64,000 nucleotides of DNA from Candidatus Levyibacteriota bacterium. Lineage in GTDB: Bacteria; Patescibacteriota; Microgenomatia; Levybacterales; UBA12049. Shown piece by piece: positions 39,545 to 52,848 of the stretch (position 1 is the first letter of the stretch; each line of letters begins with the position of its first letter). Where the stretch lies: the NCBI GenBank assembly GCA_016182185.1, contig JACOXU010000001.1, forward strand, positions 274,915 through 338,914, given 5' to 3'. The notes below the pieces were generated by a model. That model searched no databases, was not told where the DNA came from, and worked only from the letters and a program-made list of their open reading frames with translations. A program made the translations under genes and the position numbers.

Positions 39545-39583
39545 AACAATCCTCCTCTTAATATTATTTGAAATTGAAGGTGG

Positions 39584-46311: not shown

Positions 46312-48690
46312 TTAGTCAACTTGATATGGGGAGGGGGCGTGAAGAACAGGACGCGGAGGAGTTTGGGCCTCATGTTCTTTTACGCGTTGCAATTGTTTTA
46401 CTAAGGCAATATTTAATACCTCATCCATATGATTTACAAAAACAAATTTCAAATCCTTCAATACTTCTTTAGGCACATCCTCAAGGTCTTTCTTGTTGTC
46501 TTTTGGCAGAACCACAGTCTTAAGCCCTGCACGGTGAGCCGCAATTACCTTTTCCTTTACTCCGCCAATTTCAAGCACTCTTCCTCTTAGAGTCACTTCT
46601 CCAGTCATCCCAACTTTTCTATTCACGGGGATTCTGGTCAGGGCCGACACGATTGCAGTTGTTATGGCAATTCCCGCAGACGGTCCGTCCTTGGGAACTG
46701 CTCCTTCTGGAACGTGCACATGGACATCAATTTTCTGATAAAACTTTTCAGGAAGACCTAATAGTCTTGCTCTTGCTCTTATGTAAGACATGGCTGCCTG
46801 ACAAGATTCTTTCATAACTTCACCAAGTTGTCCGGTGAGAATTAAATTCCCCTTCCCCGGCATGAGCGCCACTTCTATAAACAGTATGTCTCCTCCTGCC
46901 TCAGTCCAGGCAAGCCCAGTAGACATTCCTATCTCATCCTTTTTCTCAAGAATATTTGACCTTATCTTAATCGGTCCCAAGAATTTTGGTACATTTTTTT
47001 CAGTTACGATAACTTTTTTTTCTTTTCCTTCTGCAATCATTTTGGCAATCTTACGGAATATCTTTGCGATCTGTCGTTCAAGACTTCTTACCCCTGCTTC
47101 TCTTGTATAGTGCTGAATTATAAATCTTATTGCCTCATCTTTTATTTCAGATGTCTTTTCCGATAACCCGTGGCTTTCCATTTGCTTCTTCATCAAGAAA
47201 TTCTTGGCAATTTTAAATTTCTCAAATTGTGTATATCCGGCAAAGTGAATTATCTCAAGTCTATCTCGAAGTGCAGGAGGAATAGTATCAAGCACATTTG
47301 CAGTCGTGACAAACATAACGTCAGAAAGATCAAAGGGAACTTCAAGGTAATGATCCGAAAATTGATTATTTTGCTCAGGATCCAATGCCTCAAGAAGAGC
47401 AGACGATGGATCGCCTCTAAAATCTGTCCCGACCTTGTCTATCTCGTCCAGCATAAACACCGGGTTTTTCGTGCCTGAATCTTTTATGCCTTGGATTATT
47501 CTTCCAGGCAGTGCGCCGACATAAGTTCTCCTGTGTCCTCTTATTTCTGCCTCATCACGAATTCCGCCAAGTGAAACCCGGATAAACTTTCTGCTAAGAG
47601 ATCTTGCGATTGATTTTCCGATCGATGTTTTTCCTACTCCGGGCGGTCCGACAAAACAAAGAATAGGACCCTTCATTTTTCCTGCTAATTTGTGGACTGC
47701 CAAATATTCAACGATTCTTTCTTTTACCTTCTCAAGTCCATAGTGGTCTTCATCAAGAATCTTCTCAGCAGACTTAATATCAATATTGCTCTTACTTTCA
47801 AGACTCCAAGGAAGACTTATCAGCCAATCCAAATAATTCCTGATATAACCTGCCTCAGGATTAAATTGATTCATCTGTCTTAATTTTCTTAATTCTTTTC
47901 TGGCTTTTTCTTCCACGTCTTCGGGCATTCCTGCCTTTTTGATTTTTTCAGAAAGCTCTCTTATTTCACTGTCTTCATCGCTTTGACCAAGCTCTTTTTC
48001 GATGGTTTTGAGCCTTTCTCTAAGAAGCGCCTCTCTTGCACCTTTTTCAAATCTTTCTTGAGTTTTTGAAGAAAGTTTCCTTTCAATCTCCAAAATTTTT
48101 ATTTCCTTGGTAAGAAAATCAGAAACTTTTCCAAGTCTTATCTTTGCACGTGTCTCTTCAAGCATTTCCTGCTTATCTTGAGGCTTAATATCCAAAACTG
48201 AGGCAATAAGATCTGACAATTCAGAAGGGGAGTTGTCTGACATTATATTCATAAAGGTTAGAAAATCTACAGACTTTCCCAAATTTATGGCTTTTCTGAA
48301 TTGATTTGTTACGTGATTACAGAGCGCTTTAACTTCGGCAGAATCGTCAGTTATCTCAGGCATTTCTACAACTTTGGCTACCAGAAATTGATCGTGCTCC
48401 TCATAGGAAATAATCTTGACTCTTGATATTCCCTTAACTTGAGCATTTATCTCTCCATCTGTCCTTATCATTCTCTCAATTCGGGAAAGTGTACCAATAT
48501 CGTATAAGTCTTCGGAAGTAGGTTCATTTAACTTTGAGTTTCTTTGAAGAACAAAACAAACGATTCTTTCATGCTGAAATGAACTCTCTAGCGCGGCCAG
48601 GCTTTTGGGTCTCCCAAACGTAAGAACAGAATCTATATTGGGGAAAATTATTCCGTCTCTGATCGGTATAACTGGTACAAGTTTTTCCAT
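46312..48690 (-). CDS. lon: ATP-dependent Lon protease (LonA)
   Basis: N-terminal LON substrate-binding domain, AAA+ Walker [10 protein letters not shown], and the Ser-Lys dyad region [10 protein letters not shown]...K. 792 aa. Confidence 0.9.
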
Positions 48691-48706
48691 ATTTCCTAGC
48701 GCAACA

Positions 48707-48733
48707 TTAGCACTCTATCAAAATATCTGCTAA
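48707..48733 (-). promoter_or_regulatory. CIRCE-like inverted repeat (candidate HrcA operator) in the lon 5' region
   Basis: TTAGCACTC-N9-ATCTGCTAA against consensus TTAGCACTC-N9-GAGTGCTAA: the left half is perfect and the right half matches 6 of 9. It overlaps the minus-strand promoter TTGACA(48735-48740)-17-TAGAGT(48712-48717). AGGAAAT lies 2 nt upstream of the lon ATG. Confidence 0.5.
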
Positions 48734-48758
48734 TTGTCAAGACCCTGTAGTTTTGGGG

Positions 48759-48788
48759 TTGACAGCCTCATCTTAAGGCGCCTACAAT
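48759..48788 (+). promoter_or_regulatory. Sigma70-like promoter TTGACA-18-TACAAT for the MgtE-N/CBS and NRAMP genes
   Basis: TTGACA at 48759-48764 and TACAAT at 48783-48788. The ATG at 48798 is only 9 nt downstream with no SD, indicating a leaderless or near-leaderless transcript. Confidence 0.5.
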
Positions 48789-48797
48789 TAAAATAAC

Positions 48798-49985
48798 ATG
48801 ATCTATTTCAGCCAGCTGGTAAATAAAAATATATATTTTAATAAAAAGATTTTCGGCAAAATTATTGATGCGGCTGTGTTTGAGAACTATCCTATGCCCT
48901 CTTTATCAAAGATTGCCATCAAAAAGAATAATAAAAAGGTAACAATTACGCCTGAGGCTATTAATTTTTCTCACAAATTTCCTATCTTAAAGTCCGCACA
49001 TGCACCGCTTTTGCCCTTTGATGAAAAAGATTTCTATTTGAAAGAAGATCTTTTAGACAAACAGGTTATAGATATTGATGGAAAAAGGCTTGTCCGAGTA
49101 AATGACATAATTTTGGAGAGTAACGGTGAACTTAAGGTGATCGGGATCGATATAGGCCTGTCTGGAATCTTAAGAAGACTTGGAGTGGGAAAATTAGCAA
49201 AATTAAAAGATAGAGTCTTGCCATGGCAGATGATTGAGGCATTTGACTACGAAACTGGCAATATAAAAATAAAGTTAACTCAAAATAAATTAAATTCTCT
49301 CCATCCGGCAGAGCTTGCAGATATTCTTGAGGAACTCGGAACCAAAGAAAGACTTGGTATTATTGAAGTTTTAAACCCGGATACGGCTGCCAAAGCGATT
49401 GAGGAGGCAAATCCTGAAACGCAGGAGGCAATTCTTGAACAGTTGCCAACATCGCCTCTTAAAACAATCGTTGAAAAAATGCATTTGTCCGAGTTTGCCG
49501 ATATTTTTTATAAGATTAATCCTTTGAGAATCAGGGAAATTCTCGGTCTTTTGGGAATTGAAAAAGCAAGACGTGTAGAAAAACTTCTTGACTTTGGCAT
49601 GGATACGGCAGGAGGCATAATGACACTAGACTTTTATACAGTAAGCGGCGACAAAACTGCCAAAGAGATACTTATTGAGCTTTCCAATCTTAGTCATAAA
49701 CCCGAAGCCATATTAATTACAAACGGGCATGAGAAACTAATCGGCACTCTTCTTACAAAAGATCTTGTTAATTGCGACCAGCTGTCCGTTGTGAAAGACA
49801 TTGTAAGCGACAGAAAATTTACATATGCCAATATAGATTTCTCCCAAATCTTGAGAATCTTTTCTCAGTATCACTTAAGACTTCTTCCTGTCGTTGACAA
49901 GGAAAAAAAACCAATCGGAGTGATATCTATCGACTCTGTTCTGGGCAACATAGAAGAAAGACAAGAGGAAAATGAATCTATTTAG
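48798..49985 (+). CDS. Soluble PRC-barrel + MgtE-N + CBS-pair protein (stand-alone MgtE cytoplasmic regulatory module, no TM domain)
   Basis: PRC-barrel-like VIDIDGKRLVRVNDIILESNGELKVIGIDIG. MgtE_N-like helical region LHPAELADILEELGTKERLGIIEVLNPDTAAKAIEEANPETQEAILEQL. C-terminal CBS-like repeats. No hydrophobic segments. Confidence 0.6.
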   Translation: MIYFSQLVNKNIYFNKKIFGKIIDAAVFENYPMPSLSKIAIKKNNKKVTITPEAINFSHKFPILKSAHAPLLPFDEKDFYLKEDLLDKQVIDIDGKRLVRVNDIILESNGELKVIGIDIGLSGILRRLGVGKLAKLKDRVLPWQMIEAFDYETGNIKIKLTQNKLNSLHPAELADILEELGTKERLGIIEVLNPDTAAKAIEEANPETQEAILEQLPTSPLKTIVEKMHLSEFADIFYKINPLRIREILGLLGIEKARRVEKLLDFGMDTAGGIMTLDFYTVSGDKTAKEILIELSNLSHKPEAILITNGHEKLIGTLLTKDLVNCDQLSVVKDIVSDRKFTYANIDFSQILRIFSQYHLRLLPVVDKEKKPIGVISIDSVLGNIEERQEENESI

Positions 49986-51219
49986 AAGACACTTTCGTAG
50001 AATTCTTCCCGTTCTCGCAATCATCGGACCCGGAATTATTTCAGGATCTGTTGATAATGATGCGGGTGGAATCACAACTTATTCAGTTGCAGGAGCCAGA
50101 TTTGGCTATTCTCTTTTGTGGGTTTTATTTTTAACCACATTTTCCCTGGCAATTACACAAGAAATTGGAGCAAGGATGGGACTTGTTACAGGAAAAGGTC
50201 TGGCTTCCTTGATCCGGGAAAAATTTGGCCTTAACTGGACCGCAATTGTTATGGTAATTTTGTTTATTGCCAACATGGGAACAATTGCTGCTGAGTTTGC
50301 GGGGATCGCAGGGGCTTTGGAAATATTTAATGTTCCACGATTTGCCTCTGTGCTTATAGCAATTACTGCCGTTTATTTTCTGGTCACAAGAGGAAATTTT
50401 AAAAGACTGGAAAGAATCTTCTTAGTTATTTCGTTTTTTTATATTTCTTATATTATTTCTGCATTTATCATTAATCCTAGCTGGGGAATCGCAGTCAAAA
50501 GTCTTGTAATGCCGAGCTTTCAGCTAAATAATGCATATATTTTAACCCTCATGGCAGTAGTAGGTACGACAATCACACCTTGGGGCCAGTTTTTTATACA
50601 GGATTATGTCGTGGATAAAAAGCTTTCGAAGGAGGATCTAAAAATAGAGCGAGGCGATGTATTTTTAGGTTCTTTTCTGACGAATTTTATCGCTTTTTTT
50701 ATAGTTGTTGCTACAGCGGGAACACTTTTTGCTCAGGGAATTAATATCACTGAAGCAAAAGATGCGGCAATTGCTCTGAAACCATTAGCAGGAAATTTTG
50801 CGGCCGTACTTTTCTCATTTGGACTTCTAAATGCTTCTCTTTTTGGCGCTGCTTTAGTACCGGTTACTACTTCCTACGTAATTACCGAAGCATTTGGAAT
50901 GGAATCGGGGCTCAATTTTAGAGTCAGGCAAGCTCCGTATTTTTATGGTCTTTTTGCCTTTTCTCTTGTCTTGGGAGGTCTTATGGTAATAATTCCCTCA
51001 TTTCCTCTTCTCACGATTCTTATAGTCTCTCAGGCCTTAAATGCAGTGCTACTTCTTCCTATTTTTATATTTCTCTACCTCCTTTCAAATGACAAAAAGA
51101 TTTTGGGCAATTACGTAAACAACAGGCTAATAAATGCAGTTCTTATAATTACCTTTACAGGGGTCGCAATTGCCTCATCTATCTATCTCTTCTCCCTCTT
51201 CTTCCCAAAGGGATTTTAA
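49972..51219 (+). CDS. NRAMP (SLC11) family transporter with non-canonical metal-site residues (NRMT-like candidate Mg2+ transporter)
   Basis: TM1 GPGIISGSVDNDAGG against canonical GPG...DPGN. The TM6 region GTTITPWGQFF against canonical A-x-MPHN: Met is replaced by Thr and His by Trp. 415 aa with about 11 TM segments. Overlaps the upstream ORF by 14 nt. Confidence 0.65.
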   Translation: MNLFRRHFRRILPVLAIIGPGIISGSVDNDAGGITTYSVAGARFGYSLLWVLFLTTFSLAITQEIGARMGLVTGKGLASLIREKFGLNWTAIVMVILFIANMGTIAAEFAGIAGALEIFNVPRFASVLIAITAVYFLVTRGNFKRLERIFLVISFFYISYIISAFIINPSWGIAVKSLVMPSFQLNNAYILTLMAVVGTTITPWGQFFIQDYVVDKKLSKEDLKIERGDVFLGSFLTNFIAFFIVVATAGTLFAQGINITEAKDAAIALKPLAGNFAAVLFSFGLLNASLFGAALVPVTTSYVITEAFGMESGLNFRVRQAPYFYGLFAFSLVLGGLMVIIPSFPLLTILIVSQALNAVLLLPIFIFLYLLSNDKKILGNYVNNRLINAVLIITFTGVAIASSIYLFSLFFPKGF

Positions 51220-51282
51220 TCGATCATATCAAGCCCTACGCATTGTCTGTTAGCTTCTACATCTGGTAACGAATCTTTAATA

Positions 51283-52371
51283 TTGATTAATTGTAAATCA
51301 TGTAGTATATTGCGAGCATTGTTTATGGGCAATGCCTTAGAAGAAAGAGAAAGAAAAGAACAAAGAAGTTTTGGTGTAGTGCAAGTTGTAGTAGACGGAT
51401 CACCCTTGTTTAAACCCGATTACGCTGCAGATCTTTCTGATAGAAGTTTCATAAATTATCTTAAGAACTCAGAGTCGGTGTGGAAATACGGTTCGGCAGC
51501 TTGGATGGACAGAAAACCAGAAGATATAAAACTGCTTGAAAGAATTGCGAAAGACAAGAGATTTCCTGAATTCTTAGCAGGCGTTATTAGAAACGGAGAA
51601 GACTATTTTGCAACACAAGCTGCCTCAGATTTAGCCGATATGATTGCGGGCAGCAATCAAGCTCTTGAAATCATTCCCTCAGAAGATTTAAGGCTACCTG
51701 AAAAAACTCCTGAGGATCCTGAGAATAAAGATAATTCTTTAGACAAGATAACAAAATCTATCAGGAGATTGGGATTATTTTTAAGAAAAGGGATGATAAT
51801 TTGTAGAGGAAATGTCGGCGAGGTAGAGGCCCTGCGAGGAGGAACTCTGTATATTGACGGGGATGTAGAGAAATTATCTCAACCCGAATACGGAATAGTT
51901 TATATAAATGGCGATCTTCATCATCTTGGAAATTCAGATAAAATCATTTTGATTGTAACTGGAAAAATTCATGAGTATGTCCAGCCGAAATACTCAGCGG
52001 GTGGTCTTGGATTAGAAATAACCCCTTCTCCTTTTATTTTCACTTCTGAGGAAATTAGAGGACATCGGGTCGGAGTAAAAGATCATCACGGAGGAACTCA
52101 ATTGACACACGCTGAAGAATTTTCCGGAGGTTTGGTTGTCTCTCCTGATTCTATATCTGGATGGCAACCTCAAGATGTGAAAAGAAGAGCCATGGACCTT
52201 TGCAGGAAGCGGGTGGATACGGATCTTGAAAGCATTCGAAAAATCGCAGGAAACATAAGCGACCCAAAAAATATGGCGGAATTTTACGAGAAGTATATTT
52301 TGGGATACATAACAGCTCGAGTTAAAGGAAACTATGAAGGAGCGAGCCGTCACGCTATATCTTTTGACTAG
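51283..52371 (+). CDS. Hypothetical protein with a central beta-helix-like (bactofilin-reminiscent) repeat region
   Basis: 362 aa with higher GC than neighbours. The segment ICRGNVGEVEALRGGTLYIDGDVEKL...GIVYINGDLHHLGNSDKIILIVTGKIHEY has alternating G/V/I periodicity. The start is uncertain. Confidence 0.35.
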   Translation: MINCKSCSILRALFMGNALEERERKEQRSFGVVQVVVDGSPLFKPDYAADLSDRSFINYLKNSESVWKYGSAAWMDRKPEDIKLLERIAKDKRFPEFLAGVIRNGEDYFATQAASDLADMIAGSNQALEIIPSEDLRLPEKTPEDPENKDNSLDKITKSIRRLGLFLRKGMIICRGNVGEVEALRGGTLYIDGDVEKLSQPEYGIVYINGDLHHLGNSDKIILIVTGKIHEYVQPKYSAGGLGLEITPSPFIFTSEEIRGHRVGVKDHHGGTQLTHAEEFSGGLVVSPDSISGWQPQDVKRRAMDLCRKRVDTDLESIRKIAGNISDPKNMAEFYEKYILGYITARVKGNYEGASRHAISFD

Positions 52372-52423: not shown

Positions 52424-52848
52424 TCACTTATTCAAAATAACTATAGATACGTTAAGAAGGGTTGCAAATGCAACCCACAAAGCATAAGGTAAAAGAAGAT
52501 ACATGGCAAACTTGGATATTTTATTAAACTTAATCATAGTTAAAATTAGTGCGACAAATAGAACAGTAGTAAAAATAAATATAGTGCTATTTTTATTTTT
52601 TTGCTTTTGGAATCCTCTCTCCAAATTAAATAAGCTGATAAGCCCATCAGAAAATATAATATTATCCAGACCGGACCAAAAATCCAGTTGGGTGGAGAAA
52701 ATGGCGGTTTTATAAGTTGTGCGTACCATGTAGGTATTGAACCAATAGTAAATGGAGTACCCGCTAGTCCTACTAACTCACAACCTATGATTGAAATTAT
52801 AACCTTGTAAATATCTCTCACATTTTTAGTATGAGAAATGATTGTCAT
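52424..52848 (-). pseudogene. tspO: TspO/MBR (tryptophan-rich sensory protein) gene split by a frameshift
   Basis: The N-terminal part (ORF 52546-52848) reads GSIPTWYAQLIKPPFSPPNWIFGPVWIILYFLMGLSAYLIW. The C-terminal part (ORF 52424-52729) lies in another frame and reads LLPYALWVAFATLLNVSI. The two overlap in an A/T homopolymer-rich stretch, so this is either a true frameshift or a sequencing error. Confidence 0.6.

Follow-up and report, generated by a model that had tools for sequence, protein, structure and literature searches.

NRAMP-related magnesium transporters (NRMTs) share the clade consensus DxxG-TxxA/T, with DxxG in place of DPGN in transmembrane helix 1 (TM1) and TxxA/T in place of AxxM in TM6 (PMC8806188). 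EleNRMT of Eggerthella lenta transports Mg2+ and Mn2+, not Ca2+, and is uncoupled from H+; in its mutant T224A Mg2+ transport is abolished and Mn2+ transport is kept (PMC8806188). According to Shin et al. 2014 (PMC4072509), most NrmT genes adjoin a gene for a stand-alone MgtE cytoplasmic domain, the product of which was proposed to be a cytoplasmic feedback regulator or a metal chaperone, and many of these mgtE-like/nrmT operons carry M-box riboswitches. In the MgtE channel of T. thermophilus (TtMgtE) the cytosolic Mg2+ sites are Mg4 (D91/D247), Mg5 (D226/D250), Mg6 (D95) and Mg7 (E59) (PMC5882242), of which Mg4, Mg5 and Mg7 are conserved across three solved MgtEs (PMC10200709); the ATP site of its CBS pair is formed by Y170, R187, D188, N203 and F227 (PMC5529423). 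The present analysis concerns an operon of this kind in a window of 64,000 nucleotides, the whole stretch of DNA that was analyzed (contig JACOXU010000001.1, positions 274,915 to 338,914).

The locus is a two-gene mgtE-like/nrmT operon of Candidatus Levybacteria (Patescibacteria) and belongs to a known, widespread type. The first open reading frame, ORF1 (48798-49985, plus strand), encodes a soluble MgtE-like partner of 395 amino acids with probable tandem PRC barrels, an MgtE_N domain and a CBS pair, and matches a deposited protein from a Candidatus Levybacteria metagenome-assembled genome at 100% identity. ORF2 (49972-51219, plus strand) encodes an NRMT of 415 amino acids. The pair is an ordinary member of its operon type, and earlier papers already describe the gene pairing, the exchanges at the transport site and the proposed regulation. 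What appears to be new lies at the level of the clade only, namely the loss of ligands in the partner, the absence of a riboswitch, the leaderless-type promoter and the overlap of the two genes. A further new point, on which Shin et al. 2014 (PMC4072509) do not remark, is the presence of conserved PRC barrels in the partner. ORF2 is probably an Mg2+/Mn2+ importer with ORF1 as its coupled accessory or regulatory subunit, acting by a route other than the Mg4, Mg5 and Mg7 sites.

ORF2 matches the Nramp family over its full length (PF01566, E=1.9e-90, covering positions 1-356 of the 357 in the profile). A comparison with all PDB sequences ranked EleNRMT first by a wide margin (7QIA, E=3.2e-99), with canonical NRAMPs at 1e-31 or weaker, and residues 9-400 align with EleNRMT almost gap-free (about 50% identity over the full length). 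An earlier note on this DNA, made from the sequence alone, had called the transporter NRMT-like and had read DNDAGG in TM1 and TITPWGQ in TM6. Both observations hold, and alignment to EleNRMT and canonical NRAMPs brought out no canonical Mn2+ site residues in ORF2. In the TM1 site, D28-N-D30-A-G-G33 (50053-50070, plus strand), D30 and G33 are the counterparts of D55 and G58 of EleNRMT. In the TM6 site, G198-T199-T-I-T202-P-W204 (50563-50583, plus strand), T199 corresponds to T224, T202 to A227 (the Met position) and W204 to W229 (the His position). Q354 corresponds to Q379 of helix 10. All EleNRMT site residues defined by Ramanadane et al. (PMC8806188) have counterparts in ORF2, and D30-A-G-G33 and T199-T-I-T202 fit the NRMT motifs. 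The Met-to-Thr and His-to-Trp exchanges, which the same note had presented as special, are not: Thr lies within the published consensus (PMC8806188) and is therefore a documented alternative, found in 21 of 80 sampled NRMT loci, and Trp is common to EleNRMT. The TM1 site is identical in all Levybacteria orthologues. As judged from its sequence, ORF2 is an NRMT and not a canonical Mn2+ NRAMP, and T199, Q354 and the Trp at the His position suggest H+-uncoupled Mg2+ transport.

Two further NRAMP-like sites were seen in the loci compared. A second NRAMP-like paralogue (about 30% identical), absent from the window, lies near the operon in some related Levybacteria, namely in L004 (7550-8758, minus strand), L005 (3109-4317, minus strand) and L007 (2660-3913, plus strand); its site reads DDDPSG in TM1 and GTTISPY in TM6. 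A third variant of the NRMT site, AGNDAGG / GTTISPY, has the Met position occupied by Ser and the His position by Tyr, and is outside the published TxxA/T consensus. It occurs in 21 loci (L047-L049, L051, L054, L055, L058, L059, L062-L064, L066, L070, L073, L076, L080-L083, L089, L092, L103), with the partner 85-253 nt upstream in 20 of the 21 (none in L076). Eighteen of these partners were long enough to score, and each has 4-5 acidic ligands.

ORF1 begins with a beta-domain of residues 1-75 (48798-49022, plus strand), rendered as beta strands by AlphaFold2 with a predicted local distance difference test (pLDDT) score of 75-90, which is a probable first PRC-like barrel. It is followed by a PRC-barrel at residues 79-160 (49032-49277, plus strand; Pfam PF05239, 29.7 bits, cut-off 21.2), a helical MgtE_N domain at residues 168-266 (49299-49595, plus strand; Pfam E=1.4e-18) and a CBS pair at residues ~270-385 (49605-49952, plus strand; Pfam CBS E=1.5e-13). 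The MgtE membrane pore domain (PF01769) gave no match in the Pfam scan of ORF1, and the NCBIfam model TIGR00400 (mgtE) covered model positions 19-258 of 450 only, scoring 101.8 bits where the cut-off is 232.75. The domain content first assigned to ORF1, a PRC-barrel, MgtE_N and CBS pair without a membrane domain, is thus borne out. Residues 162-389 align with the TtMgtE cytosolic domain (E=5e-23). The AlphaFold2 model (pLDDT 74.9) consists of beta-domains at ~1-75 and ~80-160, the helical MgtE_N and the CBS pair. In Foldseek its C-terminal ~230 residues (~160-390) superpose on five MgtE cytosolic-domain structures with target-normalised TM-scores of 0.8-0.85 and a root-mean-square deviation of about 2.5 A. 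Since both sequence and fold match the MgtE cytosolic domain, ORF1 is not a generic CBS protein unrelated to MgtE-N.

The N-terminal extension is probably a tandem PRC barrel, because Pfam PRC matches cover the equivalent of residues 1-75 in the homologues P0261, P0254 and P0299 and because the model is beta-rich there. An exhaustive search of representatives with ORF1 (E<=1e-30) gave 322 matching clusters, most of them 400-440 amino acids long and aligned end-to-end including the N-terminus. About a dozen relatives of ~600 amino acids (P0261, P0294 and P0354 among them) add the pore domain to give PRC + MgtE_N + CBS + PF01769, and the partner is therefore equivalent to the cytosolic half of an MgtE subfamily that bears PRC barrels. 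These PRC-MgtE channels are probably the evolutionary source or the sister of the stand-alone NRMT partner, and its link to MgtE. The second PRC domain (PRC2) is the best-conserved segment of ORF1 within the clade. Across 122 stand-alone representatives its signature (D87, Q89, D92, R100, N102, D103, R126, R127, W143) shows a conservation of at least 95%, and the ~600-amino-acid channels carry it too. Part of this signature is generic to PRC barrels, and it is for this reason taken as a lead only. Searches of the available literature found no paper linking PRC-barrel, MgtE and Nramp and none on the partner after 2014, and a 2022 review of Mg transporters leaves NRMT unmentioned.

The Mg2+ ligands of TtMgtE map on ORF1 in the alignment as E59 to K199, D91 to S231, D95 to D235, D226 to H359, D247 to S380 and D250 to G383. 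ORF1 keeps none of the Mg4, Mg5 and Mg7 ligands, the sole one retained being D235 (D95, Mg6). Among 118 clade homologues the positions are likewise non-acidic and variable: E59 is replaced by K/M/R, D91 by A/S/T, D226 by N/H/K, D247 by I/T/S/A/V and D250 by S/A/G. The D95 position is often still acidic and is the only such ligand position. Asn occupies the D226 position in 103 of the 118, so that H359 of ORF1 is not a conserved residue. The plug-helix sites Mg2 and Mg3 have no counterpart in ORF1, because the protein ends just after the second CBS motif (CBS2).

The stand-alone family at large mostly retains the ligands. In an alignment of 121 stand-alone representatives, with counts given out of 123, D91 is kept in 95/123, D247 in 103/123, D95 in 116/123 and E59, as D/E, in 92/123; the six ligand positions of metagenomic partners are typically EDDNDE or DDDNDD. 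By this comparison ligand loss is confined to the Levybacteria-like clade of the candidate phyla radiation (CPR). A link between Thr at the NRMT Met position and ligand loss in the partner was considered and ruled out, as the partners of Thr-variant NRMTs outside Levybacteria have 3-5 acidic ligands and two of these operons have M-boxes; loss of the partner ligands does not track the Thr, Ala or Ser variant of the NRMT. ATP as an alternative ligand of ORF1 is unsupported by residue conservation at the ATP-site positions. D188 and R187 are kept, as D322 and K321, whereas N203 corresponds to S337 and F227 to L360, and Y170 is deleted. The adenine-stacking F227 is Leu in 104 of 121 stand-alone members, and Y170 is deleted in the Levybacteria clade. 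With the Mg4, Mg5 and Mg7 ligands lost, the stacking Phe replaced by Leu and Tyr170 deleted, no ligand can be named for ORF1.

The pairing of the two genes had been taken for an unusual modular combination. It is not: it was published in 2014 (PMC4072509) and was found again here. Relatives of ORF1 were found in 23 Levybacteria/Patescibacteria loci, and an NRMT is the next gene in all 19 that have downstream DNA; all 19 NRMTs carry DNDAGG and GTTITPWGQF. Paraeggerthella (Actinomycetota) has an NRMT 91% identical to EleNRMT with a 450-amino-acid PRC+MgtE_N+CBS gene upstream, separated by a 4-nt gap. A diverse metagenomic sample comprised 80 NRMT loci, mostly 44-51% identical, of which the 62 with at least 1300 nt of upstream sequence were evaluable. 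The partner lies upstream on the same strand in 54 of the 62, in 48 of them within 300 nt, and 8 are without it. The partners of paired loci outside Levybacteria, in several phyla, include the PRC region. The MgtE-like partner is, on this sequence evidence, the normal context of NRMT genes. In L084, L087, L088, L090, L094 and L100 the NRMT is separated by 370-3056 nt from its upstream partner, and gaps of this size suggest an intervening element or gene.

An Rfam scan of window positions 48000-52000 for the M-box (RF00380) gave no match even at E<=1 and revealed no other relevant leader RNA; scans of the related loci L002, L007, L012 and L024 likewise found neither. The intergenic region between ORF1 and the divergent lon gene is 107 nt long (48691-48797), too short for an M-box. 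Elsewhere an M-box was found upstream in 6 of 18 other loci tested, including L041 and L045, two Thr-variant NRMT operons from outside Levybacteria.

A sigma-70-type promoter precedes ORF1 (48759-48788, plus strand) and consists of TTGACA (48759-48764), an 18-nt spacer and TACAAT (48783-48788), as the earlier note had pointed out. It scored 11/12 in a hexamer scan and was the top site of the region. Nine nucleotides, without a Shine-Dalgarno (SD) sequence, separate the -10 box from the ATG at 48798. The arrangement GGGGTTGACA-N18-TACAATTA-N7-ATG recurs at fixed spacing in ~20/22 related Levybacteria loci whose proteins are only 56-88% identical, and the layout is for this reason beyond chance. 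The 7 nt before the ATG are variable and SD-less among these loci, and the protein N-terminus is conserved from Met1 among homologues. The fixed spacing, the SD-less gap and the conserved Met1 therefore speak for the annotated start and for a messenger RNA (mRNA) with no leader or almost none; the mRNA of ORF1, proposed from the outset to be translated without a leader, probably begins at the ATG or no more than 3 nt before it. Promoter-like hexamers 3-8 nt before a start codon were also seen at 39568 (plus strand) and 60908 (minus strand), ahead of ORFs of 558 and 451 amino acids, and starts of the leaderless type may be frequent in the genome as a whole. The lon/ORF1 intergenic region also holds a minus-strand promoter, TTGACA-17-TAGAGT with an extended TG (48740-48712).

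At the gene junction (49965-49985, plus strand) an SD-like GAGG (49965-49968) lies within the 3' end of ORF1, and ORF2 starts with the ATG at 49972. The two genes overlap by 14 nt (49972-49985), the figure first reported for them. The junction could be resolved in 17 related loci, 16 of which show an overlap of 14 or 23 nt, and this overlap is confined to the Levybacteria clade; pairs in other lineages are separated by spacers of 0-250 nt.

From these data ORF2 would import hydrated Mg2+, and also Mn2+, down the electrochemical gradient without coupling to H+, by homology with EleNRMT, through a site made up of D30, G33, the hydroxyl and backbone of T199, T202 and Q354. ORF1 would be the soluble equivalent of the gating module of the PRC-barrel-bearing MgtE subfamily, made in fixed proportion with ORF2 through translational coupling, and most likely serves the transporter from the cytosol as an accessory or regulatory subunit. 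Expression would start from the strong promoter abutting the ATG, probably on a leaderless mRNA. Regulation in the clade cannot proceed by the classical MgtE sites Mg4, Mg5 and Mg7, because their ligands are gone. The M-box is likewise absent, and any sensing by ORF1 would have to use other residues or another ligand.

A number of points weigh against this mechanism. According to published work, NRMTs function without the partner in proteoliposomes (PMC8806188) and in complementation, for which the MgtE-like fragment is not needed (PMC4072509). Co-expression of the A. capsulatum partner with its transporter, the only published test, gave no further rescue, and the M-box-less A. capsulatum NrmT behaved chiefly like a Mn2+ importer, which rescued a Mn2+ defect and a Mg2+ defect weakly (PMC4072509). 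Nor is the partner universal, since eight NRMT loci are without it over their whole length (L060, L071, L076, L078, L096, L097, L099 and L101, each with at least 2.1 kb upstream). In the Levybacteria clade the partner has, in addition, lost the Mg4, Mg5 and Mg7 ligands as well as the ATP-stacking Phe and Tyr170. That a partner binds to or regulates an NRMT would be a proposal in every species, and the substrate of ORF2, Mg2+ or Mn2+, is a presumptive assignment by homology.

Other explanations of the pair were weighed against the same evidence. The earlier note had put forward a Mg2+-sensing module acting in trans, so that ORF1 would bind cytosolic Mg2+ as the MgtE cytoplasmic domain does and close the NRMT at high Mg2+. 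Both its sequence and its fold make ORF1 a homologue of the MgtE gating module, the Mg4, Mg6 and Mg7 ligands are mostly kept across the wider stand-alone family, and the metagenomic partners with their EDDNDE or DDDNDD pattern point the same way. Many such operons are under M-box control (also PMC4072509), and a brake would be of use to a uniporter that is uncoupled (PMC8806188). Because MgtE ligands are retained and M-boxes are associated, a Mg2+-responsive brake by the partner is plausible for the family at large. The part of the proposal that concerns the window copy did not stand as well. Here a Mg2+ sensor in trans is weakly supported, with the Mg4, Mg5 and Mg7 ligands replaced in ORF1 and non-acidic and variable throughout the clade, only the D95 position often acidic, and no counterpart of the plug-helix sites; the single co-expression test was negative (PMC4072509). 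Such a role for ORF1 is considered rather unlikely. It also appears unlikely that ORF2 is mainly an importer of Mn2+ (a transition metal) whose partner has a Mg2+-unrelated role, sensing Mn2+ or another ligand or serving as a metal chaperone. EleNRMT carries Mn2+ as well (PMC8806188), and the A. capsulatum NrmT, with its preference for the Mn2+ defect, resembles the window pair in having a partner and in being M-box-less (PMC4072509), as were the related loci scanned here. However, T199 is conserved, and mutation of its EleNRMT counterpart abolishes Mg2+ but not Mn2+ transport (PMC8806188); an identical GTTITPW site is found in the M-box-controlled operons L041 and L045. The partner is without its Mg2+ ligands and has acquired a His in place of D226, but this His is unconserved in the clade, where Asn prevails.

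An obligate structural subunit, as opposed to a regulator under ligand control, required for assembly, stability or oligomerisation by way of its PRC barrels and CBS dimer, would account for the overlap-coupled translation conserved in the clade, for PRC2 as the best-conserved part with a signature kept family-wide, and for metal and ATP ligands that the clade can dispense with. The same PRC signature is present in PRC-MgtE channels, however, and is therefore not an NRMT-specific docking surface, and it is partly generic to PRC barrels. Eight of the 62 NRMT loci are without the partner, and NRMTs are functional alone (PMC4072509, PMC8806188). This explanation is regarded as improbable. The preferred reading remains that of a coupled accessory or regulatory subunit independent of Mg4, Mg5 and Mg7. 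A bolder reading, offered tentatively and with some doubt, is that the Levybacteria partner, which is still strongly conserved and translationally coupled to the NRMT, is a natural 'Mg-site-null' MgtE-like subunit and that the job of the family rests on the PRC signature and not on MgtE-type Mg2+ sensing; the PRC-barrel signature would then be, again a doubtful suggestion, a different ligand site or a contact that controls the transporter. If true, this would revise the feedback hypothesis of 2014.

The operon is flanked upstream by the divergent lon protease gene (46312-48690, minus strand), an arrangement conserved in 21 related loci. Directly downstream of ORF2 lies an ORF of 362 amino acids (51283-52371, plus strand). 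It was ruled out as a third operon gene, being without a Pfam match and without a counterpart in 23 related loci; since it is not conserved, the operon is one of two genes. Further on, a TspO/MBR gene appears to be split (52424-52848, minus strand) into two overlapping ORFs, one at 52546-52848 (minus strand, Pfam profile positions 2-80) and one at 52424-52729 (minus strand, profile positions 98-144); the gene may be frameshifted or a pseudogene, or the assembly may be in error there.

What the MgtE-like partner does has been a question since 2014, and the window locus is not a new system. It adds comparative handles to that question: the tandem PRC barrel is found in several phyla, most partners keep Mg4, Mg6 and Mg7, and one CPR clade has lost the ligands and is M-box-less. 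A pair that retains the ligands (e.g. from the Eggerthellaceae around EleNRMT), set beside one from Levybacteria that has lost them, could reveal whether Mg2+ is sensed by the partner at all.

Compared with EleNRMT (PDB 7QIA/7QIC/7QJI/7QJJ), ORF2 has identical D, G, T and Q site residues and the same Trp, and differs in Thr202 against Ala227 at the Met position, both within the published consensus. The close Paraeggerthella orthologue of EleNRMT has a PRC+MgtE_N+CBS gene upstream, as in the window. In the operons of Shin et al. 2014 (for example C. acetobutylicum Ca_c0685 and the pair of A. capsulatum) the partner is immediately upstream and co-directional, as here; the window pair differs in that it is M-box-less, overlaps by 14 nt, has a promoter abutting the ATG and has lost the acidic Mg2+ ligands. 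The PRC-barrel extension, unmentioned in that paper (PMC4072509), was found here in other phyla too. The MgtE channel of T. thermophilus (PDB 2YVX/2YVY) has the same MgtE_N + CBS fold and relative domain arrangement as ORF1 (TM-score 0.8), whereas ORF1 is without the plug helix and the membrane domain, has an extra, probably tandem PRC barrel, and has the Mg4, Mg5 and Mg7 ligands and the adenine-stacking Phe replaced. The PRC-MgtE channels of ~600 amino acids (P0261, P0294, P0354) share both the architecture and the PRC2 signature of ORF1 and differ in carrying the PF01769 pore in the same polypeptide, a pore that ORF1 lacks.

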